A stretch of DNA of 64,000 nt, from assembly GCA_963828195.1 (NCBI GenBank), contig CAWHDT010000005.1, positions 96,001 through 160,000 on the forward strand, given 5' to 3'. A program made the position numbers and the translations under genes. Positions 17,413 to 47,561 of the stretch are shown piece after piece. Positions within the stretch are counted from its first letter, which is position 1; each line of letters starts with the position of its first letter. The notes beneath the pieces are model-generated. The model saw only the letters and a list, made by a program, of their open reading frames with translations. It ran no database searches and was not told the DNA's origin. Source of the DNA: Candidatus Bathyarchaeota archaeon. Lineage in GTDB: Archaea > Thermoproteota > Bathyarchaeia > Bathyarchaeales > Bathycorpusculaceae.

Positions 17413-17489
17413 GCCGAGGTAGCTCAGCCTGGGAGAGCGCTCGGCTGAAGACCGAGTCGTCGCATGTTCAAACCCTGCCCTCGGCACCA
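17413..17489 (+). tRNA. tRNA-Phe (GAA), intronless, CCA encoded
   Basis: Acceptor GCCGAGG/CCTCGGC, D stem GCTC/GAGC, anticodon arm CTCGG-CTGAAGA-CCGAG, T loop TTCAAAC, ACCA end; one T-stem mismatch. Confidence 0.9.
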
Positions 17490-21794: not shown

Positions 21795-22484
21795 TCAACA
21801 TAAGGGCTTATTCTGTTTGCCGATTAAAGTGCAAACTGTTTCTCGCCCAGCTAAAATGGACGCAACCCGCTCAGGATAAAGCCCATTAACAACGTAACAT
21901 TCAATCTGCAACTGTAAAAGTAGTTTAGGCAAAAACTTGTCCACGCTGGTCCGCGTTTCCATCTTAAGAAGGTCTTCAGAGGATATTTTGCTAAGTAATT
22001 TTGCACCAGAAAATTTATTTGGGTCACACGTATAAACACCGTTTACGTCAGTCGCCAAAATAACTTTGTCTGCATGCACCTCACTTGCAATGTAAGCAGC
22101 AATAGAGTCAGAAGTTACATCCCAAGAGTTCTCCAGCGGGTCCCGGCTAAGCAAAAAATTAGACGGCAAAAAAACGGGCAATTTACCCAGATCCAAAATT
22201 TTTTGCGCATCGTCTAGCTCATCTATTGCGCAAGAATGCGGCACCAAATCAGACAGAAGTAAACCGTATTGATCCATTCCTAAAATTGCCATTCTGTGAG
22301 ATACCGCATCTGACAGGCTAAAACGATTATCCAAATTCTTTACCGTATCGGCAAATTCGCCGCCTCCCGGCACCACTATTACCCTATGCGTCTGGGAGGC
22401 TTCACTTAACTTTGCACAGAGGTTTCTTAGTTCTTTCGGGTGCGAGGCTAAGCTGCCTCCGACTTTGACTACTGTCAGGTCCAT
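21795..22484 (-). CDS. mfnE: Amino-acid-kinase-family enzyme, [5-(aminomethyl)furan-3-yl]methyl phosphate kinase
   Basis: VVKVGGSL, VPGGGEFAD, HRMAILGMDQYG, SWDVTSDSIA, TDVNGVY; operon context. Confidence 0.8.
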   Translation of the reverse strand: MDLTVVKVGGSLASHPKELRNLCAKLSEASQTHRVIVVPGGGEFADTVKNLDNRFSLSDAVSHRMAILGMDQYGLLLSDLVPHSCAIDELDDAQKILDLGKLPVFLPSNFLLSRDPLENSWDVTSDSIAAYIASEVHADKVILATDVNGVYTCDPNKFSGAKLLSKISSEDLLKMETRTSVDKFLPKLLLQLQIECYVVNGLYPERVASILAGRETVCTLIGKQNKPLC

Positions 22485-23542
22485 TTCGTGTTTTCTCCGT
22501 CAAGTTTATTGGCTGTCATCAGAGCTACAGCGAAGGCAGGAGTTGCAACCACAACGCCAGTCGGAACAAACGTTCCCAAATCGACTATAGAGTTGGCGCC
22601 GATTTTTTCAGCGGCTTTCCTTGCGATGAAGTCTTTGCCAAGCCCCGTAACCACCACTGGAACCTCGTTTGACGCCAATTTTTTTGTGTAAGAGTAAACT
22701 TTGCTTAAGCCTTCAGCAACCTGCAGGACCTGCTGATCGCAGATGTACTTAGCTATGCTGATGATTTCTTGTTGAGTCAACATTTCCGTGTCAGCGCAAA
22801 CCACCCTTGCTAACCTCGCAAAGGTTTCAGGCAAACTTTTTCCCCGTCCATCAGCCGTTTCACAAGTGTATTGCACCGGATTGATGTTGCCTAAAGCTAA
22901 GTGTACATCGCCAGATAACGCGAACAACTCAGAAGCGACACCCGCAACCCCGTTTTTAACAGGGACAGAATGCACGATTGCCGCCACATTGGTCCTTAAG
23001 CTTCCAGTGTAAACAAGTTCTCCGCAAATGAGCTTATCCAAATCCGTTTTACCCCTCGCCGCAACTTGCCCGTTGACTATGGGAATTATGCTTGCGCTTG
23101 TGCTTCCGACGTCAACGACCACGCAATCTTTAACCCGCTGCGCTACTAACCAGCCAGTTGCAGCCCAATTAGCCGCCGCGACGCCAAGCGGTTCATCTTC
23201 AGCTGCAGCCAGAGGCGCCAGTTTTGCGTCAGTGTTCAAGACGTAAATTGGCACTGAGGGAAAAGCTTTCTTTAGACAGCCTAAAATATGGAGGACCCCT
23301 TCACGTTTGGTTGCGTAAACATCAGACAGTTCAGCGGTCATTGTTACGCCTATACCATCAAGCCTTTCGATGCCTAACCGTTCCTTAAGTGCGAGGAAGA
23401 CGCTGCTGAGTTTTTCTGGTTCTTTCCATACGGGGAAGTACTTCACTGCCACTTGGTGCTGTTGCAGCTTGCCTTTTTGCGTTTGAACAAAGACGGCTTT
23501 AGTGTTTGCCCCGCCAACATCGTAGCCCAACACGTTTACCAA
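22475..23542 (-). CDS. mfnF: Hydantoinase-A-like methanofuran coupling enzyme
   Basis: GYDVGGANTK, VTMTAELSD, AAANW, DVGSTS, ELVYTG.LRT, T.DGR, RLARVVCAD. Confidence 0.85.
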   Translation of the reverse strand: MVNVLGYDVGGANTKAVFVQTQKGKLQQHQVAVKYFPVWKEPEKLSSVFLALKERLGIERLDGIGVTMTAELSDVYATKREGVLHILGCLKKAFPSVPIYVLNTDAKLAPLAAAEDEPLGVAAANWAATGWLVAQRVKDCVVVDVGSTSASIIPIVNGQVAARGKTDLDKLICGELVYTGSLRTNVAAIVHSVPVKNGVAGVASELFALSGDVHLALGNINPVQYTCETADGRGKSLPETFARLARVVCADTEMLTQQEIISIAKYICDQQVLQVAEGLSKVYSYTKKLASNEVPVVVTGLGKDFIARKAAEKIGANSIVDLGTFVPTGVVVATPAFAVALMTANKLDGENTKWT

Positions 23543-23543
23543 G

Positions 23544-24773
23544 CTACATTCCTCCGCTGATAATGGTGAGCAGACGCTTTTTAGCTTCTTCTAACCGTAA
23601 CTGGGCATCTTCCAAAGATTCGCCTTTACCGTAAACGAGCGAGCACGTTTCATCATTATTTCCCATTGGAAAAGGCGGTGAAACCACTTCTTTTGATTGA
23701 GCGGCTTTTTGAAAAGCGTCAAGTGTCGGCTTGGGGGTTTCCACTTTTGAGAAGCAAACAAAACCCTTAGTTTCTTTTCCAGTTGGAAGCTTACCCTTCA
23801 CAACCGCGTTAACCATTTCCTCGGCAACGTTGAAGGCGGCAACTCTGCATAAGCCAACGTAAGAAGTTGTTAACCGCGGATTGACATCAACTACAAACGC
23901 TTTATCTTCCGCCAAAATCAAATCAACACCCACATAACCCCTTAGACCAGCAAAAGACTCAACAACCTTCTCTGCCACACTGAAGGCTTCCTGCTTTAGC
24001 GGATGGTCAAATGGGACAGCGCCGCCTTCATAGCTTGAATCAGCCTCTGGAGCGGCAAACATGATGTTTTGTTTATTCAAGCTAATTGCCGACGCTTTGC
24101 CGCCTGCAGAAAGAACGCTTACGCTTGCAGCTTCGCCGTCAATAAATTCTTGGACTAAAAAATGGTTCCCTGATTTAACCTTTAATTTTGCAATTGCCTT
24201 CTCAACCTGTGCGGTTTCTTTAACGATGCTTAAGCCGCCGCAGCTGACGCCCACCGTGGGCTTGAAAACTATTGGATAACTAAATTTTTTGGTGATTTCA
24301 TTTTTAGTTTCTGCTAACGCCTCGCCGACCTTGAGCACGATGGTTTTGGGAGTGTTTAAACTGTTGTTTTTTAACGTCTCATGCAGAATTCCCTTATCCG
24401 CGACTTTTTTAATGGCATGGGCTTCGCAGTTAAGAGAAACCTTACCTGTGTGCTCCACAAGTTCAACAAGCGACTGCAGGGTTTGCCCCGTTTCAGGAGC
24501 AATGACGTAAACAGCGTCGTTAATTTTGGCGGCGTTAACGAGAAGTCTTTCGGCTTCATGGCGATAGAAAACTGGTACCGTGCAGTCAGCTTCTACTGGG
24601 GGATTCAGTTTTGAAAGCCTGCCATCGAGCAAAACGGTTACCGCGTTGCCTGCGCACTTAAAATCGGAAGCAATTGACCGTAGCATTGCGAAGCCTTCAG
24701 ATAAAACGCTTGGCGGAATAGGTTGCCCTGCGTATCCGCCGCCTGAAACGTGCTCGTAAACTAAAAGCCTCAA
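23544..24773 (-). CDS. mfnD: ATP-grasp tyramine--L-glutamate ligase
   Basis: SEGFAML, IAPET, QEFIDG..ASVS, GYVGVD, VNPRLTTSY; operon context. Confidence 0.85.
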   Translation of the reverse strand: MRLLVYEHVSGGGYAGQPIPPSVLSEGFAMLRSIASDFKCAGNAVTVLLDGRLSKLNPPVEADCTVPVFYRHEAERLLVNAAKINDAVYVIAPETGQTLQSLVELVEHTGKVSLNCEAHAIKKVADKGILHETLKNNSLNTPKTIVLKVGEALAETKNEITKKFSYPIVFKPTVGVSCGGLSIVKETAQVEKAIAKLKVKSGNHFLVQEFIDGEAASVSVLSAGGKASAISLNKQNIMFAAPEADSSYEGGAVPFDHPLKQEAFSVAEKVVESFAGLRGYVGVDLILAEDKAFVVDVNPRLTTSYVGLCRVAAFNVAEEMVNAVVKGKLPTGKETKGFVCFSKVETPKPTLDAFQKAAQSKEVVSPPFPMGNNDETCSLVYGKGESLEDAQLRLEEAKKRLLTIISGGM

Positions 24774-24813
24774 AGCAAACCTCCGTCAGAGTCGATGGAA
24801 ACCCACAGTAGCC

Positions 24814-25953
24814 TTAAAGCTTTTCTATTTCCGCTAGATCTTTCAAAAAAGCTTCTACGTGCTTCTTTTTAACGTGAGGCATCACGATGATTCTGATGCA
24901 GTCGTAGCGTGGCACGTAAGCCACAAACCAGTCGCCTCTCCAAAGCTTCTCAGCTAAACTCCTCGTTCCCTTATCACTTCGAAAAGCTACAATGTTAAGT
25001 GTCGGCTCCACAACAAGTTTGAAACCAGCACCGCTTAGCCCATCAGCAAGCAATCTGGTAGTTTTCATGCAGTCTCCCACCACTTTTTTGAACCCGTCCA
25101 CTCCGAGAACCCTGAAAACTGCCCACGCTGAAGCTGCAGCGGCGCCTGACCGCGTTCCGACAAACGTGAACTGGTACGGGTCGGTTAAGTAAGGCGTTTC
25201 CGTTTTGATAAGATCCAGGGCTTTGCCGTCTCTGAAAATGATTCCGCCAGCGGGGATTGCCGCCATACCCATTTTGTGCGGGTCAACCGTCATAGACTTC
25301 ACCGCGTCTAAAGCGAAATCAAATTTACAGTTTGCGTTTTTGAGAAACGGAATAACTAATCCACCGAAAGCTGCGTCAACATGCAACCAAACATTATGCT
25401 CCAAAGCAATTCTGGATAGCTCCTCGATTGGGTCGACTGCGCCCAACTCCGATGTTCCAGCGGTCCCAACGATGGCGACTGTGTTTTCGCTGACGCATTT
25501 TTCAACCGACGAAGGGTCAACCCTAAATGAGCCGTCTAAACCCGCATAGACTGGCTTGAGATTCAGCAGGTTGCAGATTTTGGTGAAAGAGAAATGGGCG
25601 GATTCTGGCAACACAACCTCAGGCTGGCGGATTTGCGTCATGTTTCTTGCGGCTAAAAGCGCCATCAAATTTGCTTCTGTCCCGCCCGAAACCACGAAGC
25701 CAACGCCGTTTTGCCCATGCAGAAGCGCCGATAGCTGATTTACAACTTCTTTTTCAAGGCGTGCGGTTCCTGGAAAGAGAGCTTTGTCCCCCAGATTGGA
25801 GCTTAAAAATAGTCGATAAGCCTTTTCGGCTATAGGATGGGGTTTTGTGCACATTGAACACAAAATCTTGCCGTCTTCATACCGCGGGTCCTCGGCGCGG
25901 GTTGCTTTAAGTTCAGCCAACACTTTTTTCCCGCTTGACCCGCTGGATTGCAA
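24814..25953 (-). CDS. mfnA: L-tyrosine/L-aspartate decarboxylase (PLP-dependent)
   Basis: ILCSMCT.PH, NLGD..LFPG, SGGTEAN, HVDAAFGG, TVDPHKMG, GTRSG. Confidence 0.93.
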   Translation of the reverse strand: MQSSGSSGKKVLAELKATRAEDPRYEDGKILCSMCTKPHPIAEKAYRLFLSSNLGDKALFPGTARLEKEVVNQLSALLHGQNGVGFVVSGGTEANLMALLAARNMTQIRQPEVVLPESAHFSFTKICNLLNLKPVYAGLDGSFRVDPSSVEKCVSENTVAIVGTAGTSELGAVDPIEELSRIALEHNVWLHVDAAFGGLVIPFLKNANCKFDFALDAVKSMTVDPHKMGMAAIPAGGIIFRDGKALDLIKTETPYLTDPYQFTFVGTRSGAAAASAWAVFRVLGVDGFKKVVGDCMKTTRLLADGLSGAGFKLVVEPTLNIVAFRSDKGTRSLAEKLWRGDWFVAYVPRYDCIRIIVMPHVKKKHVEAFLKDLAEIEKL

Positions 25954-25955
25954 AG

Positions 25956-26696
25956 TTAAATCCTCTTTGTGTTAGCTTGTTTTTCAGCTTGCTTAACGGT
26001 TTCAACAAGTTCCGCCACCAGCTTCTTGGTAATTTTGCCGCCTACTCTGTCGCTGTTTGTGCAGGCTGCTCCACGTAGACCCGCCACATCCGCGCCTAAA
26101 CCGTACACCACGGATAAATCCTGTTTTCTCAGCGAACCAGCCAGCGCCGCTTCCAAGCCAAGTTTATGGGCGGAACCGATGAATTTTTCAAGTTGCTGGG
26201 TGGACAAGAAGTTGAAGAGGTTTTTGCCGTCTTTCACGGCTGTATCAACCATTGCAAGGTCCACCTTAGCCAACGAAGCTATTTCTGGAATAAGCATAGG
26301 GTCTAATGCGCCAACTCTTTCTGCGTCCGCGTAGCCTGCGGCTGCCACTTTGATTTTAGGGTTGATTTCTTTGGCTGCCCTGTTGACGTTCTGCAACAGA
26401 AAAACGGCTTCTTTGGGCGTTTTGAACCCGTAAAGACCCACTTTAATGTAGTCAACACCCAGTGACGCTGCGCCAAACGCAGCCAACGCTATTGACCCTG
26501 GAAGGTTCGGAACATCGCCAAGTGCGCAGCTTACCTGGATGTTTCTCGGAGTGATTTCCCGTATCCGCTTGATAACCCACGGGAAATTTGCTCCTAACGC
26601 GCCCTCCTGAGGGTTCTTGACATCTATTATGTCGGCGCCGCCGGCGATGGCTTCACAGGCTTCTTTCTCGTTCATGGGGCTTATGAGTAGCTTCAA
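25956..26696 (-). CDS. mfnB: (5-formylfuran-3-yl)methyl phosphate synthase
   Basis: LLISP, GADIIDVKNP.EGALGANFPW, DYIKVGL, MVDTAVKDG, ALAGSL, GLRGAAC. Confidence 0.93.
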   Translation of the reverse strand: MKLLISPMNEKEACEAIAGGADIIDVKNPQEGALGANFPWVIKRIREITPRNIQVSCALGDVPNLPGSIALAAFGAASLGVDYIKVGLYGFKTPKEAVFLLQNVNRAAKEINPKIKVAAAGYADAERVGALDPMLIPEIASLAKVDLAMVDTAVKDGKNLFNFLSTQQLEKFIGSAHKLGLEAALAGSLRKQDLSVVYGLGADVAGLRGAACTNSDRVGGKITKKLVAELVETVKQAEKQANTKRI

Positions 26697-30552: not shown

Positions 30553-30619
30553 GGCAACGTCATTCTTTAGAAAGTTATTAAAGCACATATTCGCATAAAG
30601 TAACATCGGAGAATAACAA

Positions 30620-30712
30620 ATGCCGAAAAAAGAAAAACCATTAACTAAAAAAGAACGAGACGCAAAAAGAAAAGCACGAAAAGACAAGGAAAGCAAAACA
30701 CAGAAGTCTTAA
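30620..30712 (+). CDS. 30-aa Lys/Arg-rich small protein (not in ORF track)
   Basis: MPKKEKPLTKKERDAKRKARKDKESKTQKS; GGAGA RBS, TTATTAAA upstream, T-run after the stop. Confidence 0.55.
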   Translation: MPKKEKPLTKKERDAKRKARKDKESKTQKS

Positions 30713-32796: not shown

Positions 32797-33411
32797 TGAT
32801 TTCTATAGTTATGATAATTGTCTCATTTAACAATTTCTTTTTTCGGCAAACTGAGAACCCAGCCAACAGATACATCTGTTTCGCCAACTGACCTTCGCTA
32901 AGCTTCCACGAACACACGCAGATATTTATGTTAGCTGCCGATTTTAACAATACTGCGAAAGTATCAACGGCGCCAATGAAGATAATTGCACGTTTGGATC
33001 GGGTTCAGCAAACTGCTGTTTCCCAAAGATGACTTAAAATTAAAATGCGTTCTGAGGTGCCAAAAACTTTTTCTTAGCCGCGAATGATGCCGCCCACAAA
33101 AAAGTGGCTTTAACGAATTTTGGGTTTTTTGCTTCGTTAACTTATTTGAACAAAATTGATGACGATTTTAGCCGAAATTAATCGTTTGTTTATAAGCAGC
33201 TTAGAAGATATTTTAATGTGGCTTAAGTCGCAATGCAAAGTCAAGGGGAAGGCTAGGTTTGATATCGGATAACAAAATTATGTTTGGAGAAACTTATAAG
33301 TGCAGAATTTGTTCAGCGAAATTTGCTAATCCTGAAGAACTAAGAATCCACCGTATGGTTAGCCACAAAGGCCACATGCTCATCATCAAACGTTAAGGCT
33401 GCACGTATATT

Positions 33412-33732
33412 ATGTCCAAGACTTCTCAAGCTCTAGCATGCTGGTTCATCCGAGACGGCGCGAAATTGGTGCAGTGCAGCAAAGACGATTTTGACAAAGC
33501 CATCGCTGAAGGAAAAAGCGTGAAGTACCGTGGCTACGCGAACAAAAAAAGTGAACACATAGCGGATCAGTTGGAGGAGTCCCGAATGGCATTTCTAAGC
33601 AACCCAGAGTGTCCCCCGAAATTCCGAGAAGTAATAACAAATCCGAGAAATGTCGTTGAAGTCCAGATAATACTGGTTGATGACCCCCAGTTTTGGCAGA
33701 GAGAGTCCAAGCGAACCAAATACCACGAATGA
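33412..33732 (+). CDS. Hypothetical protein
   Basis: 106-aa ATG ORF with globular composition; no motif recognised. Confidence 0.55.
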   Translation: MSKTSQALACWFIRDGAKLVQCSKDDFDKAIAEGKSVKYRGYANKKSEHIADQLEESRMAFLSNPECPPKFREVITNPRNVVEVQIILVDDPQFWQRESKRTKYHE

Positions 33733-37687: not shown

Positions 37688-37969
37688 TCACTATTTGTTA
37701 TGTTGTAATTAGTTAATAGCGTATGTTGCTATCATACCACAGTCACAAGACATCAGATAGGAATTAACGACATTCTTATCAACAAAAGTTGCAGTCCCTG
37801 CTGCCTGCCAACAATAGTTGAACCAGAAGTAGGCTAATTACGATTCAGACAATTAAAAATTTCAACCAGGAACCAATCCGCAATAAATGGGTTATGGCTG
37901 GTGTTGGTCGTAACCAACCTTAGGGCTTTATTTAGGGTCCACGCTCACACTATCTAATCTCTAGGCTTA

Positions 37970-38540
37970 CTATTGCAGGCTGGTAGGAGCTTTCTCTGCA
38001 AAAGGAGTATTGTTTTTAGAGGCAAATATTAGGTCATGCATTAAATTGAAATTTGAGTCTTTAGCAAACCGGTTTTTTATGAATTCTGAAAAATAGTTGC
38101 CGGTTAATTCTTGGACCTTTTTTTCGTCGCTGACGTATTTTAGGTGCAGCAGTTCATGTATCAACGCGGCTCGTGCTCTGTTGCCGACGAATGTAAACAG
38201 GTAGTCTTTTCCGTATTTCTTTCGGAACGCATAGCAGAAGTTGAAGGTTTTGGGGTAAATGCGGATTCGGCCCCTGAAAGTGTCGCATCTGCCGACGATG
38301 TTGAACCCGTTTTTTCTGCGAGCGGGAAAAACAGCGATATCCACGGTGTTAACGGTTTTTTCCCTCAATGTTTTCTACTGAAAGCATAGAGCTTAGAAAT
38401 TCTTGGAAGGAAGATTTTCTTAACGCTTTCAAAGTAAAGCGGGAATAATTTTTGTAAAAACCAGAATGCTTAGAGAAAGATTTGTCATATTCAAGAGCTA
38501 TGTTTATTTTGTCATAGAGCACCAAGTTTTGTTGTAGCAT
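37970..38540 (-). pseudogene. Frameshifted HExxH zinc-metallopeptidase-like gene (38349-38540 plus 37970-38368)
   Basis: Removing one base from GAGGGAAAAAACC joins ...VENIE to KTVNTVD...ALIHELLHLKY into one ORF of ~189 aa. Confidence 0.7.
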
Positions 38541-38553
38541 ACTTATCGAAGGT

Positions 38554-38760
38554 TTACAGTGGATTAGTTTGCACTAGAAAAACGCTGTTCTTGTTCATCT
38601 TGGAGGGAGAACGTGTGAATCCATACGAATTGGCACAAGCATCCAGTCGGTGACTAGCAGAACACCTGATTCCAACAGTCTGCCCATTTTGCGAAATCCA
38701 AACAATTCGCCCCATTCGAGTACACTGAGGGCACTGCGCATAATCGCCGACAGTTACCAT
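38554..38760 (-). CDS. Small zinc-finger protein
   Basis: CPQC...C..SH ligands; GAGG before ATG; directly upstream of the HExxH gene. Confidence 0.7.
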   Translation of the reverse strand: MVTVGDYAQCPQCTRMGRIVWISQNGQTVGIRCSASHRLDACANSYGFTRSPSKMNKNSVFLVQTNPL

Positions 38761-39241
38761 GTTAAAGCCTCGGTTCTTGTCATATTACGCGTACAGCCAC
38801 TATGTGTAGCTGAGTTTGATTCAACAAAATTTTTCCCTAAACTAAATCTTAACATGTACATTTTTTTCCCCTCTATCTTTTGAAAAGTAAGCCAGTAACC
38901 CAAACCCACGCGAGCGCAAAAGAGACTTTTCATCTATAACATAGTCTACTCTGCTTATAAACAAACGTTAAAAAAAATCCTTGTTCTCAACAAAATTCAT
39001 TAAATAAAATGTTCGTTGTCTCTACATTTTCTGGTTCTCCAAAGCGCCCTGCACAAAATATTTCAAAAACAACAATACGTGACGTCTTTTTTCCAGATGT
39101 TTTGAGAAGCATAAGGTGGTGTTATGTTGGTTGTAACCGTAGACTATAAAAAAACATTTGGTTCTCGTTGGCTTGAATCGAGCGCATCCTTATATAAGTC
39201 TTCGAAATTTTAAAGTTACAAGTTAAATTAGAGGTTAAGTT

Positions 39242-39961
39242 ATGGCTGCATTTGCACAACCAGGCGCATATGATTATGCAAACACCGTTTTCTCCCCAGA
39301 TGGACGGCTCTACCAAGTTGAATATGCCCGAGAACTAGTTAATCGCGGCGGCACCATTATAGGCATCAAATGTGCAGAAGGCGTCGTTCTGGCTTCAGAA
39401 GAAAACAGCGAAAACTTCGAAGAAACAGACCACTCATGGAAAATTTTTAAAATCGACGAACACATCGCAACAGCCATAGTAGGCTTAAGTTCCGACGCAA
39501 GAGTGCTAATTGACCACGCACGCCTCAGTGCCCAAAGCAACAAACTAGCCTATGATGAACCCATCGATGCAGATGCCTTAACCCAAAAAATATGCAACAT
39601 CCAACAAACCTACACACAACAAGGCGGGGGACGACCCTTCGGCGTCGCCATGATCATAGGCGGAGTAGACAAAACAGGCGCACACATACTTCGAACTCAC
39701 CCGAGCGGAAACTACACGGGATACAAAGCCACCGCAATAGGCGCAGGAACAGAAACAGTTCTGCCAATGCTGCAAGACGCCTACCGAGAAGACTTAACAC
39801 TTGAAAACTGCATAAAACTCGCAGTAAAATGCCTACTAAAAACCCTAAAAGAACGGGAGCTCCCCCCAAAAATAACGATTGCCACAATACCTACCGCAAC
39901 AAAAAAACTGGATATGCTATCTGACAAAGCGGTAGAAGGCTACATCAAAGAGACTTCTTAA
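39242..39961 (+). CDS. psmA: Proteasome subunit alpha (divergent copy)
   Basis: YD...TVFSPDGRLYQVEYA, KIFKIDEH, GLSSDARVL, YTQQGGGRPFGV, ATAIGAG. Confidence 0.93.
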   Translation: MAAFAQPGAYDYANTVFSPDGRLYQVEYARELVNRGGTIIGIKCAEGVVLASEENSENFEETDHSWKIFKIDEHIATAIVGLSSDARVLIDHARLSAQSNKLAYDEPIDADALTQKICNIQQTYTQQGGGRPFGVAMIIGGVDKTGAHILRTHPSGNYTGYKATAIGAGTETVLPMLQDAYREDLTLENCIKLAVKCLLKTLKERELPPKITIATIPTATKKLDMLSDKAVEGYIKETS

Positions 39962-40124
39962 CTCCAAAAAGCTGTTTCTTTACGTGTTTCTTGTTAAAAA
40001 CAGAGGCGATTAGACCAAAAGGCAGTATGCTTGCTCCACCGAGTTATCGCTTCTAAAAATGGGCTGGTGATACTCAACAGTTATAGTTCACAGGGAAAAA
40101 TTATTAGAACAACCTGTTACACAT

Positions 40125-40382
40125 ATGTTCTTTATGAACAAATCAGAAGCTTTAGTGGTGTTGAGTGAGATTCGTGATGCCTTAAAGAAAGCGGAGGTCT
40201 CAAGCTGTGTTTCCCTCGATAACTCACAGGTATCTCACGTATCAACCGGCGGGTACGAAATAAAAATGAAATGCGAATTTGACAGCGTATCAAGGGATAT
40301 CATAAACGTCATACTGAAAAGAAATGCATTATACATGAAAGAACAAAACGGCTACGTAATTTTACGTTCCCTCAAAGACTAG
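40125..40382 (+). CDS. Hypothetical protein
   Basis: 85-aa ORF with MNKSEA..VL.EI / GYEIKMKC pattern. Confidence 0.6.
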   Translation: MFFMNKSEALVVLSEIRDALKKAEVSSCVSLDNSQVSHVSTGGYEIKMKCEFDSVSRDIINVILKRNALYMKEQNGYVILRSLKD

Positions 40383-40468
40383 TATGAAGTGACGAGCAAA
40401 CTCGCCTTTTTAATCGCATAACATTTCAGCCAAGTCATGTTGGTCCTGCGCATAGAGGCATCTTTTTG

Positions 40469-40558
40469 TGGGCGTGGTGTGTTGGTTGCAACCCGCCTTC
40501 TGTTATCTGTGGCATTCGGCTAATCGGGCTACCCACGCCTTCCGGTAGAAGCTTCATC
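40469..40558 (-). repeat. Duplicated 3' end of the RNase P RNA gene (att-like island boundary)
   Basis: Aligns to 45578-45666 with 6 differences over ~90 nt, same orientation. Confidence 0.9.
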
Positions 40559-40590
40559 AGGCTCTTCTCCATCTTAGTGATTAACCATAA

Positions 40591-40619
40591 AATTTATTTC
40601 TGTGGCAGAGAAATAAATT
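40591..40619 (+). promoter_or_regulatory. Palindromic operator of the TA operon
   Basis: AATTTATTTCT-gtggcag-AGAAATAAATT, perfect 11-bp arms just upstream of the antitoxin ATG. Confidence 0.65.
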
Positions 40620-40633
40620 ATCTGATAATAAAA

Positions 40634-40867
40634 ATGTCTGAAAAAGTAAAAGTTGGAATGCGCGGTCAACTGGTTATTCCAAAAAAGTTTCGCAAGAAAT
40701 ACAACATTGAAAATGGAATAATAGTTGAAATTGACGATACAGACAAAGGCTTACTTTTGAAACCGTTTGACCCAGTGGCTGAATTGAAAGGCATCGGAAA
40801 AGGCCTGTTTGGAGACCCAGTCAAATATCAAAAAAAGCTTCGCGAAGAATGGGACTCCGAGAAATGA
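40634..40867 (+). CDS. vapB: AbrB/MazE/SpoVT-type antitoxin
   Basis: VKVGMRGQLVIPKKFRKKYNI..G, LREEWD tail; ATGA overlap with the toxin. Confidence 0.9.
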   Translation: MSEKVKVGMRGQLVIPKKFRKKYNIENGIIVEIDDTDKGLLLKPFDPVAELKGIGKGLFGDPVKYQKKLREEWDSEK

Positions 40868-41277
40868 AGATTTGCTTAGACACCAACATTCTCATTTATT
40901 TTGTCGAAGGAGCCGAGCCTCAGGCGAGCAAAGTGGGGAAAATCCTTAGAGCATTTATGAAGGCTGAAGCGGAAGGAATCATTTCAACCATAACCGTAGG
41001 CGAAGTCTTAACAGGCGTCTACAAGTCAGAAGACAAAAGCAAACCCACAGTAGTAAAAAAGTTACTGAACGATTTAACTCTTAACAGCCTCAAAATAGTG
41101 CCCGTCACCTTTGAAATTGCAGACTTAGCCGCCGACCTTAGATCAAAAAGAGGCGGAAAACTCCCCGACGCCTTAATTGTCGCCACAGCACTCAACCAAA
41201 AAGCCGAAATAGTTTACTCACAGGATAAAGACCTGCAACGCTTCAACAAAGACGCAAAAATCTGTGAACTGCCATAA
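40864..41277 (+). CDS. vapC: PIN-domain toxin
   Basis: LDTNILIY, STITVGEV, LPDALIVATA, SQDKDL. Confidence 0.92.
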   Translation: MKICLDTNILIYFVEGAEPQASKVGKILRAFMKAEAEGIISTITVGEVLTGVYKSEDKSKPTVVKKLLNDLTLNSLKIVPVTFEIADLAADLRSKRGGKLPDALIVATALNQKAEIVYSQDKDLQRFNKDAKICELP

Positions 41278-41544
41278 AGCGCTCTTACCGCAGGGCAGGG
41301 CAGGCCAGCCGCCGTAGTTTTTAACTATGTCTGGGAAGCGAAGTTTTTGCTAGTGTTTTATAGTGAGCTGGAATATTGCCAGCCACGCATTCGTTATTTG
41401 CAAAATCGTATAAACAAAGTCATAATGCGAAACCGAAAACTGCTTATACAATGCTGCCTCAGGTAAGGGATTAATGGAAACAATGGTTCCATGCCCGATA
41501 AGAAATCAAATTCTTAGAATCATAAAATTATTAGAGGAAAAAAA

Positions 41545-41709
41545 ATGACAACGAAAAAATCCAAAGTAGTTAGCTTAACAAAAACAACAGACTTTAAATA
41601 TAGACTCAAAGAGCGCCAAAAGAAAAATCGAAGCGCCAACAAAACAATTGAGACATTTTTACCCATTTCAAACGAAGAGACACCCAAAAAAACAACTAAC
41701 CATAGTTGA
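41545..41709 (+). CDS. 54-aa basic hypothetical protein
   Basis: GAGGA RBS, MTTKKSKVVSLTKTTDFKYRLKERQKKNRS...; no family recognised. Confidence 0.35.
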   Translation: MTTKKSKVVSLTKTTDFKYRLKERQKKNRSANKTIETFLPISNEETPKKTTNHS

Positions 41710-42237
41710 TGTGTACTTTTCTCTGAATTTGCCTTTAAGAAGCCGCCACCTTGACAGTAAACTCCCAAATAAGGTACAGATTAACGTTTAACCAACAAAC
41801 TTACGGGTTTCCAAATTTAGTTTAAACCCTTGCCGATGAAAAGTAGAATGTCCTACTATAAATTATCTTCGGTGACTTTGCTCAAAGGTTTGTCTTTAGA
41901 AGTCATTGTTTTGGTTTTTCTTATTGAGTTTTCCCAGCGAATCAACTGGGTAACCCCAGAAAAATAAGATAAAAACCCTTTTACACGTGCGCTTTCATTA
42001 TAGCATATCTGAAAAGACGCAGTAACCAAGCTTATTACGTCGGATATTTCCGTTTTTAAGGTTTTTCCGCGCTAATTTGTTCATTAACTATTATTGTTAG
42101 CATGCCTTCTCAAAACTTGCTATTTTCATCTCAATTTGCCTCATAAAGCTTTGCCGACGTAGGCTTTTTTTTTAATTGTAACAGTTATAGATTACTTTAT
42201 AAGCTGCCGCAAGACATAAGATACATAGGTTGTTTTT

Positions 42238-43440
42238 ATGAGCGAAACTCCCAAAACTTCTCGAGAGACTGAAACCCGTACTCGTGCGCGAAAAAAGAAA
42301 AATTTAGCCCTTGAAAGTCTAACCATTTGGGTTTTGCCTTTCAATCGGGCGCTCCTTAATCTTCAGGAACTCCATCGACGAAGTATTAGCAGTACCAAGC
42401 CCGCTCAAATCTCGGTTTTATCGGAAGTTTCGGCCAAACATGCCCAAAAATTATTTCTAGAGGGATTGGGCTCTATGTTAGGTCAACTGGCTGTGATACC
42501 AGATGAGGGAAGGCGAAATTTCCTAAACCACATTTTGTCATTTGCAAACGAGAGCAGTTCGTTTGATGGTTTGCAGTCACTGTTTGTCAGCGCGTTGCAC
42601 TCAGTGGCAGCTCAAGGGAATGCTGAGGAGGTCCACAAGGCCAGTGAAGTTTGGAAGCGTGTTGGCCCCGCCGAACAAATCGATGGTGGAATATATGCTA
42701 ATGCTTTTCTGAATACAAGCTCCGATACGATATGGATGTTGAATCAACCTACCGTTGCCAGCCTAGTGGATTCAATAATAGACGATTCGAATTTTGAGTT
42801 CACAGTGTCCGGGAGCGACGGGAACGGAGACACCATTATAAACAGTGGGGTCAACAGCGTAGGTTTAACGAGTTGGGAAAATATCCACGGAGGAGATCCT
42901 TTCGAGGGAGATGACGATGATGACGATGATGACGATGATGACGATGATGACGATGATGACGATGATCAACCAGCGCCAGGGCCGAGTTGGTCCGCTTGGA
43001 CCTGGGGGAAAGGATTGATTTGCAGTACAGCTATGAAGTTGGCTTGTGGTGGTGCTTCTGAGGTTCCGTTGATAGCGGGTGGTTGTTGGCTAGCCACAAG
43101 TGCTTTATGTTCTTATTGGGCTAGCCATACTGCTGGCGGAGGTCCCGGCGGTGGGGATCCGGAACCAGCTTTTTCAAACGATAATGAAGTGGACGCCGCA
43201 CTTGTGGGTGGTGCCCCATCCGTACAAGTCATGATTCCAGCGGTAGCGGGATCAGATTCTTTAGTTGGCATGTCAATGGCTGGAATTCCGCGCGTTTCTA
43301 ATAATGCGACGACATTATCGGAAGCGGGAGTGCTTTCAGCAACAACTTCAAGAGGAGCAATGCCGGGTGATGACGACGTCCCCGATCCTAATACGGGCCC
43401 TCGCGTAGCTAGAGCGCACGCACGACCCAGACACGAATAG
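42238..43440 (+). CDS. Orphan protein with poly-Asp tract and Cys/Trp-rich core (candidate precursor peptide)
   Basis: 400-aa ORF; TTTATAAG and AGGT upstream; D19 tract followed by Cx7Cx12Cx7C. Confidence 0.75.
   Translation: MSETPKTSRETETRTRARKKKNLALESLTIWVLPFNRALLNLQELHRRSISSTKPAQISVLSEVSAKHAQKLFLEGLGSMLGQLAVIPDEGRRNFLNHILSFANESSSFDGLQSLFVSALHSVAAQGNAEEVHKASEVWKRVGPAEQIDGGIYANAFLNTSSDTIWMLNQPTVASLVDSIIDDSNFEFTVSGSDGNGDTIINSGVNSVGLTSWENIHGGDPFEGDDDDDDDDDDDDDDDDDDDQPAPGPSWSAWTWGKGLICSTAMKLACGGASEVPLIAGGCWLATSALCSYWASHTAGGGPGGGDPEPAFSNDNEVDAALVGGAPSVQVMIPAVAGSDSLVGMSMAGIPRVSNNATTLSEAGVLSATTSRGAMPGDDDVPDPNTGPRVARAHARPRHE
42910..42966 (+). repeat. Coding microsatellite (GATGACGAT)x6+GAT = Asp19
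   Basis: Six perfect 9-nt units read directly from the sequence. Confidence 0.95.
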
Positions 43441-43588
43441 CTGGTGAGCATTCTACTCACATAGCAAGGTATTGCAAGCGAGTAACCGAATACGTGATTG
43501 TTGGATGCGGAGACACAGAGGGCTACCTTATCAACTCTAGCATGTTTTCTTTGCAGAATTGAATCCTGTCACTTGACGAGAGGCGACC

Positions 43589-45334
43589 TTGATAAACAGC
43601 CCTAATAATCGCGAGGTATCGGCGCTATTTAATATTGTACGCAAAGTGATTGCTGCGAGACTCATGGGCCTGGAATTCAAAATTAGTCCAGTGGATGAAT
43701 CAGATCAAAAGACAATCGTTAACATTACAATTCGCATACATGGCAAAGTATGTGGATCGATGAGTGGAAATGACTCAACGCTATCCCAGGCAGTTTCAAT
43801 CGCAGCATGGCGGGCTGCTGGTGACAATAGGTTTGGTCCACCTATATCACACGTTGATTTTCCGGAATCCACTTTGGAATTGTGGATTCAGAAGAGCAGC
43901 GAACCTCTTCCCGTTCGTGAAGTCACAAATATCGACATGGGGTTGGATGGCATAGAGTTGAGGAGGGGCGACAAATTCGCTTACTTTAAACCATCTGTTC
44001 CTCTCACAAGTGAGATAAAAAGTAGCGTCCGCCTTTTACGAAAGCTATCCCGGAAGGCAGGTCTGAGCCCAGAACAATGGCGTCATGAAGGAACAACATT
44101 GAGGCGCACAAGATGGGATCATTATATTGAGACCACAGGGCAGAAATCTGGGGTGTTGCAACTGCACCGATTGCGTCCTATCAATCCACTTGAGCCTACA
44201 AAAAAGAACGTGTCACAATTTCTTAGACTTGCTCAGAACAGGCTCCTAAATGTGCAATCGAATGATGGGTTATACTTGTACAAGTACCAACCCTTCTCAG
44301 AAAAAGCATCAGGAAGTCGAATGCATGTAGTTCGCCAAGCTGGTTGCACGTACGCAATAGCAGCCGCGGCAGCGCAGGAAACAGATAAAGAAAGAGCCGC
44401 AGTACTTGAAGAAAGTGCCGTCCGAGGAGTTAAATTCCTCTTGAGATTTAGCTCTTTCACTCCTAAAGGAGGTCTATATCTCGATGAAGCAGAAACGCAT
44501 GGATCATCAAATCGCCCCAAGCTGGGCTCAGCCGCTCTCCTCCTGTTGGCATTGCAGTTTGGTCAGCTTGCGCATAAATTTGACCGAGAGCGGGCGTCGC
44601 TCGTCACAGCTATACTCAATCTTCAGAACTCTGACGGCTCATTTCGATGTTATTTTAACAGCAGTTCTCATTTAGGCGATGGAGCATCTCAAAACTTCTT
44701 TCCCGGCGAGGCGCTTCTTGCGCTTACTCACGAAGCACGACGTGGTCGAGCCGATTGCAGAGAAGCTGTAGAGCGGGCTTTTCACTGGTACAGGGAATAC
44801 TTTGGGCGAAGCCCAGCGACAGCCTTTGTCCCGTGGCAGGTTGATACTTGGCGGCGGGCTTTTGAGTGGGATTCGAGTTCTAACGAATCAATTCTCCACG
44901 ATTCCGAAGGTTATCCCGAATTCGTGTTCAAGATGATTGATTGGCTGTTGCAGTTCCAGCTGGGCGTGGATACTGAACCTTGGGACTCAGTTGGCGGATT
45001 CTCTTACAGAAATTCCGTGCCGGGATATTCCACTGCAACTTATGCTGAAGCAATTATCCGAGCGTATGGACTTTCGAAACACCTAAGACAAAGCGAAAGG
45101 ATGTTACGATATGCTCAGTCCTCGCTCTTGGCACTGCGTTTTCTGCTCCGGCTTCAGATTAATCCGGATACCGCTCCGCTATTTCCTGATCCCGCTCGCG
45201 CAGTTGGTGGCACGACGTCTAGTCTGAAGAATTTTATGATTCGAAGTGATTTTGATCAGCATACTATTACCGCGTTGATGGCTGCGTTAGAAGCGGCTGG
45301 TCTACTCGAAGTCAATGGAGCTCTTCCAAATTAG
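43589..45334 (+). CDS. AMMECR1 domain fused to an alpha/alpha-toroid (prenyltransferase/LanC-like fold) domain
   Basis: ITIRIHGKVCGSMS, AAGDNRFGPP, GLDGI...YFKPSV, LSRKAG (AMMECR1); VQSNDGLY, RQAG, KLGSAALLLLAL, LQNSDGSF, FPGEALLAL helical repeats; GAGAGG before TTG. Confidence 0.8.
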   Translation: MINSPNNREVSALFNIVRKVIAARLMGLEFKISPVDESDQKTIVNITIRIHGKVCGSMSGNDSTLSQAVSIAAWRAAGDNRFGPPISHVDFPESTLELWIQKSSEPLPVREVTNIDMGLDGIELRRGDKFAYFKPSVPLTSEIKSSVRLLRKLSRKAGLSPEQWRHEGTTLRRTRWDHYIETTGQKSGVLQLHRLRPINPLEPTKKNVSQFLRLAQNRLLNVQSNDGLYLYKYQPFSEKASGSRMHVVRQAGCTYAIAAAAAQETDKERAAVLEESAVRGVKFLLRFSSFTPKGGLYLDEAETHGSSNRPKLGSAALLLLALQFGQLAHKFDRERASLVTAILNLQNSDGSFRCYFNSSSHLGDGASQNFFPGEALLALTHEARRGRADCREAVERAFHWYREYFGRSPATAFVPWQVDTWRRAFEWDSSSNESILHDSEGYPEFVFKMIDWLLQFQLGVDTEPWDSVGGFSYRNSVPGYSTATYAEAIIRAYGLSKHLRQSERMLRYAQSSLLALRFLLRLQINPDTAPLFPDPARAVGGTTSSLKNFMIRSDFDQHTITALMAALEAAGLLEVNGALPN

Positions 45335-45578
45335 GCTTGCGTTTGGAACCATTCACCTTTTCCGTGAGATAATTGGGAGTAGTCGCTCAAAAGTTTGCGC
45401 GCAGTTTCAATCGCAACTAACTAAAAACAGATCGAACTGATGCGGAAAAAAGTTGGTGCGGAGGGTTAGGTTTACATTCACGTTTAAATGAACCCCTTGG
45501 AGCTTCATTCTCGTCTTGTTAAACTTTCGTTTGGCGTATTGGCTTTTTGAAATCTTCTGATGTTTACAACAAAGATTT

Positions 45579-45896
45579 GGGCGTGGTGTGTTGGTTGTAA
45601 CCCGCCTTCTGTTGTTGTGGCATTCGGCTAATCGGGCTACCCGCGCCTTCCGGTAGATTCTTCATCGGCGACTGTTTGCCCTTTCCACTTGCAGGACGGC
45701 CGTTTCACCGTTTCCAGTCTGGCGCACTCTGCGTCACTAACGCGTCATTGCCTATCCAGTTGGACGTTTCGTTTCTGCTCCGTTGCCAACGCTCTCGCGT
45801 TGCCCCAACGACGGGGCTGCAATTCTACATGTGGGCGGAGTTTCCTCAGACCCGCATTTTTTTGGGTCCGACAGCCACACACCAACTCGCCAGCCC
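45579..45896 (-). ncRNA. rnpB: Archaeal RNase P RNA
   Basis: Minus strand reads GAGGAAACTCCGCCCAC (CR-I), GCAGAAACG, GGTGAAACGGCC, AACAGAAGGCGGGTTAC (CR-V); P1 GTTGGT/ACCAAC, P2 GTGGC/GCCAC, P3 GGACCC/GGGTCT. Confidence 0.92.
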
Positions 45897-45953: not shown

Positions 45954-46541
45954 ATGACTAAACGTGTCATCCTCATAACAGGCACACCCGCGGTAGGCAA
46001 AACAACCACAGCGAAACAGCTAACCAAAATGCTGCCTGATGCCCTCTACATTAACTTGACCAACTACGCCAAAACCTACAAACTAACACAGGGCGAGGAC
46101 ACAGAGCGAAAAACAACCATAATTAACGAAGACAAAATGCGCACAAAACTCGCAGAAACCATCAACACCGCCGACGAAGCAGACATAATCATTGATGGGC
46201 ACTACGCCGCCGCAGTGACCCCCACGGAGCTGGTTTCCAAAGTGTTTGTTCTGCGCCGAAACCCCAAAGAGCTAAAGCGGTTCATGGAGAGATGCGGTTT
46301 TGAAGATGCAAAGCTTTGGGAGAACCTGTCAGCCGAGATCCTGGATGTCTGCCTAATTGAGGCGTTGCAGATGCAGGCGGGCAAAGTCTGCGAGTTGGAT
46401 GTGACGGGCAAATCAGTTGAGGATGTTGTGAAGGACATTTTGGATGTTTTGGATAGGGACAAAAAATGCTTTAGCGGCGTTGTGGATTGGCTGGGGATGC
46501 TTGAGCGAGAAAGCTTAACCGACCAGTACTTAAAAGCTTAA
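45954..46541 (+). CDS. Adenylate kinase, AK6/Fap7 type
   Basis: LITGTPAVGKTT, IIDGHY, KLWEN.SAEILDVC.IEA, VDWL. Confidence 0.9.
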   Translation: MTKRVILITGTPAVGKTTTAKQLTKMLPDALYINLTNYAKTYKLTQGEDTERKTTIINEDKMRTKLAETINTADEADIIIDGHYAAAVTPTELVSKVFVLRRNPKELKRFMERCGFEDAKLWENLSAEILDVCLIEALQMQAGKVCELDVTGKSVEDVVKDILDVLDRDKKCFSGVVDWLGMLERESLTDQYLKA

Positions 46542-46562: not shown

Positions 46563-47561
46563 TTAAGCACTTGACCTTAACCATCCTCTTCGTTTGAAAA
46601 GCAGCGTAAGGGTCAAAGCAACAGCAACCATTATTGCAATCATAACGTAGAAGCCGTAGGGATTAGTTGTTCCAGGAATAAATCCTGATTTGAAACTCGT
46701 TCCATAAATTCCAGCAATCAAACTCAGCGGAAGAAAAATAGCTGAAATTATCGTGAGAACCCTAATTATGTTGTTAGTTGTTACTGTTTGAGCGTTGACC
46801 AAGGTGTCTCGGATGTTGCCCATTTCTTCCCTGTGGGCATCGACAACCTCCACCAGCTGAATTGTTCGGTCATAGAGGTCTGCGAAACGGGGAAGGTTCA
46901 CTCCTTGCACAAGCGCAAATTCTCCCCTTGTTATTCTTCCCATGATTTCGCGAAGCGGACTCAAACTCTGCCTAAGAGCCACCAGCCGCTCTCTTAGCTT
47001 AAAAACTTCAGTCCCAAAACTGCCCGATAGCCTTGACCCTTGTCTGAAGAACCCGAAGGCTTCCAGATTAAACGCATTAATCTTGTCGAACACCGCGTCT
47101 GAAACTGGGTAATATTCACTCGTGACTAAATCCAAGAAAATATATAGCATAATATCCGTTGAGGGCACAAGTGAAAGCGAGAAATAGCCGTGCGTGCCTA
47201 TTTTTTTGTAAACAGCACAAGTCAAATCTGAATAGCCCTTATGCAGCGTTATTATCCATCTTGAACAAACAAGCATCGCCAAACGTTCCATTTTCCCATC
47301 AGAAATAAAACTTTCCCGATTCGGAAAATTAAGAAGACAGAACACGCGATCTTCATGCTCATCAATTCTTGAACGAACCCCTTCATCAGTAAGTTCCTGA
47401 ACGTTGTGTTCATCTATGGCAAAATAGTCCTCCAGCTCTTTCATTTCGGAATCAGTCGGGTCTTGGGCATCTACCCATAGAACTTCAGCTTTACCAATTT
47501 CTTCAGGCAAAACCTCTAAATTTCCCGATTGCCATCTGCCTTCTTCGTGTTGCTTGAGCAA
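46563..47561 (-). CDS. corA: CorA-family Mg/Co transporter
   Basis: WVDAQDPT, NNIIRVLTIISAIFLPLSLIAGIYGTSF (GMN replaced by GTS), two C-terminal TMs. Confidence 0.88.
   Translation of the reverse strand: MLKQHEEGRWQSGNLEVLPEEIGKAEVLWVDAQDPTDSEMKELEDYFAIDEHNVQELTDEGVRSRIDEHEDRVFCLLNFPNRESFISDGKMERLAMLVCSRWIITLHKGYSDLTCAVYKKIGTHGYFSLSLVPSTDIMLYIFLDLVTSEYYPVSDAVFDKINAFNLEAFGFFRQGSRLSGSFGTEVFKLRERLVALRQSLSPLREIMGRITRGEFALVQGVNLPRFADLYDRTIQLVEVVDAHREEMGNIRDTLVNAQTVTTNNIIRVLTIISAIFLPLSLIAGIYGTSFKSGFIPGTTNPYGFYVMIAIMVAVALTLTLLFKRRGWLRSSA

Follow-up and report, generated by a model that had tools for sequence, protein, structure and literature searches.

A probable remnant of integrative elements at the RNase P RNA gene 3' end in a Bathyarchaeota archaeon

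Results

The rnpB gene and its repeated 3' end

The sequence analysed, referred to as the window, was a stretch of 64,000 nucleotides (nt) from Candidatus Bathyarchaeota archaeon (GCA_963828195.1, contig CAWHDT010000005.1, positions 96,001-160,000, forward strand). It carries rnpB, the archaeal RNase P RNA gene, and a displaced copy of the 3' end of that gene; the DNA enclosed by the two copies (40559-45577), termed the island, is the subject of this report. The features on which the analysis was built are listed below by window position.

45586-45890, minus strand: rnpB, archaeal RNase P RNA gene, full length (Rfam RF00373, RNaseP_arch, 190.3 bits)
45578-45666, minus strand: proximal repeat copy, attL-like, comprising the last 81 nt of rnpB and 8 trailing nt, part of the working gene
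40469-40558, minus strand: displaced rnpB 3' fragment, attR-like, 90 nt (pairwise alignment)

The rnpB gene was matched over model positions 1-288 (E 5.1e-55, gathering score 84) and was the sole full-length copy in the window. The distal repeat copy is in direct orientation and lies 5.1 kilobases (kb) downstream, following the direction in which rnpB is transcribed. A repeat search returned two adjoining blocks at a spacing of 5108-5109 nt, one of 36 nt at 97% (40469-40504 with 45578-45613) and one of 51 nt at 94% (40508-40558 with 45616-45666). On alignment of the 90 nt with the 89 nt, 84 of 90 columns were identical, the six differences including one 1-nt indel, and similarity was lost sharply on either side of the repeat block. 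An initial annotation, made by a model from the sequence alone, had described the last ~90 nt of rnpB as recurring directly 5.1 kb downstream with six differences, and the alignment confirms this. Both copies were scored with RNaseP_arch, as that annotation had suggested; the distal copy alone gave 19.5 bits (E 0.02) against the 190.3 bits of the gene, and is therefore only a fragment of the gene, no second one. When a pattern of 27/28 nt derived from the repeat was searched for, it matched twice in the window and never in 100 dinucleotide shuffles. The target of the island was identified with Rfam as the RNaseP_arch gene, neither a tRNA nor a tmRNA gene; the only tRNA gene in the window (17413-17489) lies far from the island.

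Relatives were collected by running a DNA pattern from the rnpB repeat over genome contigs, which gave at least 121 loci in other genomes (L001-L121), and all locus counts given here are among these pattern matches as listed. The titles of nearly all of them read Bathyarchaeota or Bathyarchaeia. The window rnpB was matched by 120 of the 121, and when 20 were re-checked with Rfam, 17 held a full-length rnpB (180-214 bits). Flanks of 2 kb per side were available for 80 loci and of ~300 nt per side for 41.

The real ends of the window gene are probably at about 45578 and 45899, by way of an extended P1 helix. The 8 nt beyond the Rfam model are predicted to pair with the 5' leader and so to lengthen P1, and the same leader/trailer pairing was predicted in 45 of 45 rnpB genes listed (the window and 44 loci), with one compensatory change, in L001. 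Because the extra 8 nt extend P1, the boundary of the repeat coincides with the true 3' end of rnpB.

The six differences between the copies were compared site by site with 92 full-length relatives. Four fall at sites polymorphic among the relatives, where the state of the fragment is shared by 21, 13, 24 and 19 of the 92; the fifth falls at a site that is C in 89 and T in three; at the sixth, the fragment departs from a base that is A in all 92. The change at the invariant base is consistent with loss of function, and the four at polymorphic sites may be allelic instead of products of decay. By this comparison the two copies look like two alleles, one of which is starting to decay, and such a pair would fit one allele from the host and one from an element. 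The initial annotation had taken the divergence of the repeats as a sign of an old event. That reading holds only in part, given the four possibly allelic differences. The linker J/P2-P4 also differs, being of a 27-nt form in the window gene and of a 28-nt form in the fragment. Both forms are mixed among the rnpB genes of the closest listed relatives, possibly as a trace of 3'-end replacement by elements.

Genes between the copies

The following features were found between the two copies, with protein lengths in amino acids (aa); ORF denotes an open reading frame and GC the guanine plus cytosine fraction.

40634-40867, plus strand: AbrB/MazE-type antitoxin, 77 aa (Pfam PF04014, E 3.1e-08; NCBIfam AbrB-family domain; 76% aa identity to L057)
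40849-41277, plus strand: PIN-domain (VapC-like) toxin, 142 aa (Pfam PF01850, E 4.9e-22; 79% aa identity to L057)
41278-42237, no strand: AT-rich stretch of ~960 nt, GC 0.34-0.39, no long ORF
41545-41709, plus strand: small basic ORF, 54 aa, within the AT-rich stretch, conserved in L088
42238-43440, plus strand: cargo gene, 400 aa, with a poly-Asp run, no family match
43589-45334, plus strand: cargo gene, 581 aa, with an N-terminal AMMECR1 and a C-terminal alpha/alpha-toroid domain (Pfam PF01871)

The last 19 nt of the antitoxin gene are also the first 19 nt of the toxin gene. From their domains and order, the two genes are predicted to form a VapBC-like type II toxin-antitoxin pair; the matches of the PIN protein to the NCBIfam VapC models were under the cut-offs of those models. 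The 54-aa ORF had no family match in Pfam or NCBIfam, and the 400-aa protein had none in Pfam, NCBIfam, PADLOC or the protein Atlas. Its N-terminal region of ~150 aa is shared by 67 distant relatives, on which Pfam likewise returned nothing. The poly-Asp run of this protein is encoded by a 9-nt tandem repeat at 42901-42972 (six overlapping 27-nt copies). For the 581-aa protein, 40 relatives besides the window's own were found, at identities of 57% or less. Its AlphaFold2 model (mean confidence score, pLDDT, 93.2) shows an AMMECR1 domain followed by an alpha/alpha toroid, and the fold matches were AMMECR1-like proteins, then the toroids of squalene-hopene cyclase and sugar epimerases. PADLOC gave only a weak PIN match on the cargo, and the protein Atlas gave no usable match. 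The content had been described at the outset as a toxin-antitoxin pair with orphan genes, and an AbrB/PIN pair with genes of no clear function is indeed what lies there.

Integrases at rnpB in relatives

The two sides of rnpB differ among the relatives. The upstream side is syntenic and begins in the window with the following gene.

45954-46541, plus strand: conserved upstream neighbour of rnpB (host flank), putative P-loop kinase (Pfam AAA_18; NCBIfam PRK03839 below cut-off)

The kinase gene was found by tblastn beside rnpB in 46 loci listed, and the small genes after it there are those that also come next in the window; used as a protein query against genome contigs, the kinase returned no relative. 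The downstream side is hypervariable. It was analysed in 65 loci with at least 900 nt of downstream flank, L065 being left out as it overlaps L064, and the 152 ORFs obtained formed 117 clusters, of which 103 had a single member. The Pfam search covered 149 of these ORFs, the omitted three being ORFs of L057 already placed by homology to the window. The largest clusters were integrases (15 and 8 members) and antitoxins (4).

The Pfam family Phage_integrase (PF00589) was found in the downstream flank of 19 of the 65 loci, in 13 of them as an ORF of at least 300 aa. The near end of 17 of the 19 integrase genes lies between 119 nt inside and 208 nt past the 3' end of rnpB; in L027 and L043, where the gene is split, the ORF with the Pfam match is 687-1239 nt past it. 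Six integrases are on the opposite strand, with the stop codon 32-39 nt from rnpB (L028, L012, L029, L078, L024 and L025, the rnpB match being cut by the contig end in L078 and L024), and the rest are on the same strand. Pairwise BLASTP placed the 19 in three groups, A, B and C, and they scored 70-91 bits with the archaeal XerA model, the cut-off of which is 220. As they form three groups and fall far under this cut-off, they are not one housekeeping gene. Two group A genes, in L027 and L043, are broken into two ORFs, which indicates integrase decay in progress. L052 and L080 hold further ORFs that cluster with the integrases by BLASTP and have no Pfam match.

A large protein collection, which provides a separate line of evidence, held 1294 homologues of group C. 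Among its 120 best cluster representatives, 27 carry an N-terminal run-on that is the translated 3' end of rnpB, so that on those contigs the genes lie directly behind rnpB. The run-ons are in differing frames, and the common protein, of 281-282 aa, starts after rnpB. Versions with an integrase in related Bathyarchaeia, proposed earlier as a point for comparison, are thus present, in the 19 loci where an integrase adjoins the rnpB 3' end.

A split integrase gene of the SSV type was considered for the window and rejected, since no int halves were found in the window and the extensions of the relatives differ in frame; the N-terminally short integrase genes of L035, L026 and L041, on the same strand as rnpB, may still be of this type. 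The candidate half was a 45-aa ORF on the minus strand (40572-40435) that starts 14 nt inside the island, reads through the fragment and shares its frame with the start of the L036 integrase ORF. As the real protein starts after rnpB and the extensions of its homologues vary in frame, this ORF is mere translated rnpB.

Several further genes were seen near the integrases or rnpB in these flanks: a CAP12/Pycsar-type TIR effector (L010), SIR2_2 (L026), DUF4062 (L072) and DUF4365 (L004) and, downstream of rnpB in L062, L043 and L073, the C-terminus of a type I restriction R subunit, a phospholipase D-type (PLD) nuclease and Cas6. Such genes are typical of defence islands. One metagenome-assembled genome holds three full-length rnpB genes on three contigs and in different contexts (L027, L028 and L107), one with the split integrase and one with an intact integrase on a 19.7-kb contig; this could reflect strain variants that differ in site occupancy, or mixed binning.

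Displaced fragments and short copies in relatives

Displaced rnpB 3' fragments away from contig or locus edges were found in seven loci among the matches listed. In L006, L064 and L046, the fragment shares the strand of the full gene and lies ~0.7 kb downstream of it, and in L064 and L046 the two enclose a VapB/PIN pair. The fragment of L099 and the full gene of L120 are both on contig CAWDXS010000003.1, at about 1,447,263-1,451,673 and 4.1 kb apart, in a layout like that of the window. L047, L086 and L098 also have rnpB fragments. The fragments fall into length groups of ~55-72, 88-90 and 107-128 nt. On contig CAWDRR010000006.1, the full rnpB of L001 and the 114-nt 3' fragment of L047 are ~174 kb apart and on opposite strands, which could be due to a large inversion, one of whose ends would lie in an rnpB-linked element.

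Shorter copies were searched for with a profile of the last 139 nt of rnpB (nhmmer). Eleven secondary matches of ~21-30 nt, all to the extreme 3' end, were obtained across the window and nine loci. E was below 0.05 for only three of them, and it is their joint placement that carries weight: 11 of 11 lie downstream of rnpB and on its strand, for which the chance under random placement on two sides and two strands is (1/4)^11. Several are preceded by a common 7-nt arm motif. In L057 and L002, homologous genes come just past the short copy, as expected if host DNA resumes there.

The closest relatives and the outer flank of the window

L057, which has the most similar rnpB among those listed, carries in order orf85, AbrB, PIN and rnpB, with PIN 45 nt from rnpB. 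The window counterpart of orf85 lies just outside the 90-nt fragment, and the same flank holds a probable short copy.

40125-40382, plus strand: orf85, just outside the 90-nt fragment (78% aa identity to L057)
37896-37921, minus strand: extreme 3' end of rnpB, probable outer short copy (profile nhmmer, E 1.9 alone)

Nucleotide identity to L057 in the orf85 region was 87% across window positions 40098-40439. In L057, orf85 is inside a segment bounded by a short repeat, and within the loci listed this gene was found in L057 only. In L088, it is the small-ORF region that lies ~72 nt from rnpB, its positions 413-628 matching window positions 41691-41477 at 87.6% over 218 nt (blastn). L064 carries an AbrB homologue outside its own fragment. 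AbrB/PIN-like pairs adjoin rnpB in L057, L064 and L046.

The probable short copy at 37896-37921 would be the far border of an older element, and 37922-45577 would then be a tandem array. If this border is real, psmA, encoding the proteasome alpha subunit (39242-39961), would fall inside the repeat-bounded array, as would orf85, a 68-aa zinc-ribbon-like ORF and a 132-aa ORF, all in 37922-40468. Against alpha subunits of solved structure from archaea, the psmA protein scored strongly (best E 6.1e-62, 212 bits), and no psmA gene was found at 2 kb or less from rnpB in the 121 loci listed. Its presence inside the array would be odd, and the array reading does not account for it. Past its rnpB-linked modules, L064 (3414-3938) resembles window positions 30566-30702 and 33408-33725 (86% and 78% identity), and from this similarity, 7-10 kb further out, the window between 33.7 and 40.4 kb may also be variable or rearranged.

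On the upstream side of the window, a CorA-type magnesium transporter gene (46563-47561) sits between the kinase gene and a 120-aa ORF. The latter two are adjacent in relatives such as L012, L039 and L055, and CorA was found in none of the 121 loci listed; it is a second indel beside rnpB, on the otherwise syntenic side. Elsewhere in the window, and unrelated to the island, genes for a 4-HFC-P synthase (4-(hydroxymethyl)-2-furancarboxaldehyde phosphate synthase), a pyridoxal phosphate (PLP)-dependent decarboxylase, an ATP-grasp enzyme and an amino-acid-kinase-fold protein lie at 21795-26696, a cluster which we take to resemble methanofuran biosynthesis genes.

Discussion

Origin of the island

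A full gene with a direct 3' fragment displaced from it and ending at the gene end is the layout that integrase insertion leaves. We infer a recombination event from it, and consider it likely that the island arose by integrase-mediated insertion at rnpB; our confidence that the island is a single element is lower. The island would be what is left, without an integrase, of one or more integrative elements that entered by site-specific recombination, catalysed by a tyrosine recombinase, within the last ~89 nt of rnpB. The attachment site borne by a circular element would have been a copy of the 3' end of rnpB, and the crossover would have kept the gene whole, its 3' part now being supplied by the element (attL, 45578-45666); the direction of this exchange, in which the proximal copy is the element-derived one, is likewise a conjecture from the layout. 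The original 3' end would have been displaced by 5.1 kb as a dead fragment (attR, 40469-40558). The integrase would have been lost later, and the AbrB/PIN pair probably helps to hold the remnant in place. The rnpB end would act as a hot spot at which remnants stack in tandem, the array in the window probably reaching 37896. Site-specific integration into rnpB, put forward in the initial annotation, is thus supported by the layout in the window and by the integrases and fragments at the same site in relatives.

Several observations weigh against this account. No PF00589 match was found by Pfam among 59 ORFs of the window, the island included, and tblastn with the 19 rnpB-linked integrases over the whole 64 kb found no remnant (best non-rnpB match E 0.013); this is what the annotation had anticipated in proposing an element that had lost its integrase. 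The cargo genes are atypical for mobile elements, and GC is not clearly foreign (0.34-0.52 in the island versus 0.40-0.50 in the flanks). A clean empty site, with rnpB followed by orf85 or psmA, was not found among the 121 loci listed; the search of related Bathyarchaeia for such a site, also suggested at the outset, yielded L057 and L088, which are without parts of the insert. L057 has no fragment between orf85 and AbrB and lacks the 4.3-kb cargo, and its nucleotide identity to the window is 77% over the toxin-antitoxin pair versus 87% over orf85. The profile search found no second fragment at the inner junctions (near 41.3 and near 41.8 kb), where one would be expected from simple tandem accretion, and the outer short repeat is weak when taken alone (E 1.9). 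The 3' ends of all relatives are nearer the intact copy than the fragment (L057: 95.6% versus 91.1%), so that identity by itself cannot demonstrate that the gene is chimeric; identity as a test of chimerism was therefore rejected, which copy is foreign not being shown by it, and the per-site comparison was more informative.

Some of these points, together with the arrangements in the closest relatives, bear on whether the 5.1 kb is a composite of at least two rnpB integrations with deletions or module exchange, the 90-nt fragment bordering one event only. We regard this as a serious, if tentative, possibility. The AbrB-PIN pair directly beside rnpB in L057, with no fragment, the small-ORF region directly beside rnpB in L088, the AbrB homologue outside the fragment of L064, the unequal identities to L057 and the short outer repeat at 37896-37921 all speak for it, and the lack of an inner fragment between the modules in the profile search speaks against it, as do the 2-kb flanks of the relatives, which are too short to rebuild the order of events. 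Candidates for an inner degenerate fragment, at the junction of PIN and spacer or at 41.76-41.86 kb, were rejected on the profile search, and a 17-nt inverted match at 41824-41840 with a weak MAFFT alignment there was treated as chance. For the difference from L057, either L057 lost ~115 nt and 4.3 kb, or the toxin-antitoxin pair of the window came on a second element. The ~115-nt gap of L057 removes the fragment and a few bases on each side and looks like a deletion; the 77% identity over the pair against 87% over orf85 favours a separate origin of the pair. Since both the composite history and the simpler one need integrase-mediated insertion at rnpB, the former refines the proposed explanation.

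An origin of the fragment by local segmental duplication or rearrangement, with no site-specific recombinase and with its position at the gene end a coincidence, would accord with the absence of an integrase from the window and with the failure to find an empty site. We consider it very unlikely, given that the repeat and the gene terminate at exactly the same 3' position, that duplications of this gene end, with several repeat lengths, occur in at least seven further loci, and that integrases adjoin the rnpB end in 19 of 65 loci; recurrence at one gene end across genomes is not expected of random duplication. An artefact of assembly or binning is a still more remote prospect, even for an assembly from an uncultured organism. 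The copies differ at 6 of 90 columns, and mis-joins usually give identical copies; the source contig of the window's own protein is 954 kb long; and other assemblies show this architecture on single contigs (L006, L064, L046 and L099/L120).

rnpB as an integration site

Insertion by an integrase at rnpB remains the preferred explanation for the island, and the relatives extend it beyond one genome. In these Bathyarchaeia, one and the same rnpB end serves three integrase groups and two repeat classes, one long (55-128 nt) and one short (~27 nt), and the data support rnpB as a recurrent integration site there. We lean, though only slightly, towards a broader proposal, namely that rnpB is a main landing site of mobile DNA for several unrelated integrase lineages, that the 3' quarter to third of the ribozyme is replaced each time, making it a horizontally exchanged mosaic, and that islands and defence genes pile up behind it in tandem.

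The arrangement resembles that of islands within genes for tRNA and tmRNA (Islander type), where a direct repeat derives from the 3' part of a structured-RNA gene and the gene is kept whole by element sequence; tyrosine integrases beside the gene end, here in relatives, and remnants stacked in tandem are further likenesses. It differs from them in its rnpB target and in the lack of an integrase in the window copy, and the rnpB repeats are longer (55-128 nt) than typical tRNA cores, with the short class of ~27 nt in addition. Archaeal integrative elements include those of the SSV type, with a split int gene, and those of the pNOB8 type, with an intact one. The intact integrases beside rnpB in relatives resemble the non-split type; the split-gene arrangement of the SSV type was looked for in the window and was not found. 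As in type II VapBC-like modules on integrated elements, the gene of an AbrB-fold antitoxin overlaps that of a PIN toxin, and a stabilising role may be supposed for the pair.

Archaeal tyrosine recombinases are described as targeting the 3' ends of RNA genes in a review whose text names neither RNase P nor rnpB (PMC8371274). Prophage phiEf11 of Enterococcus faecalis integrates in ffs, the gene of 4.5S/SRP RNA, with a 27-nt core and with its integrase present (PMC12540744). That paper, of 2025, calls integration in ffs novel and lists as RNA-gene targets tRNA/tmRNA and csRNA only (PMC12540744). The rnpB island is like phiEf11 in site-specific integration into a structured-RNA gene other than a tRNA gene, a kind of target that on this account is still rarely described; it is unlike this bacterial phage in its archaeal host, in the RNA concerned and in being a decayed remnant. 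That integrases insert elements at the 3' ends of RNA genes is already known, and what is new is the target, rnpB. Searches of the literature yielded no report of rnpB as an attachment site, and none of the passages on rnpB or RNase P that were consulted dealt with integration, although the target lists and supplements of island surveys could list rnpB.

Target-based island finders look at tRNA and tmRNA genes. As described in a note on TIGER/Islander, islands are sorted as lying in tRNA/tmRNA genes, in coding sequences or as 'intergenic' (PMC12424338), and with these target classes islands in rnpB would be missed or recorded as intergenic. Should rnpB be a regular target in this widespread class of sediment and soil archaea, it would offer a handle for finding mobile elements and their defence genes, and candidate pairs of integrase and attachment site for archaea that currently lack genetic tools. 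In that case, an essential ribozyme would join the short list of RNA genes exploited by integrases, and the question would arise of how RNase P function survives repeated swaps of the 3' strands of P1, P2 and P4.

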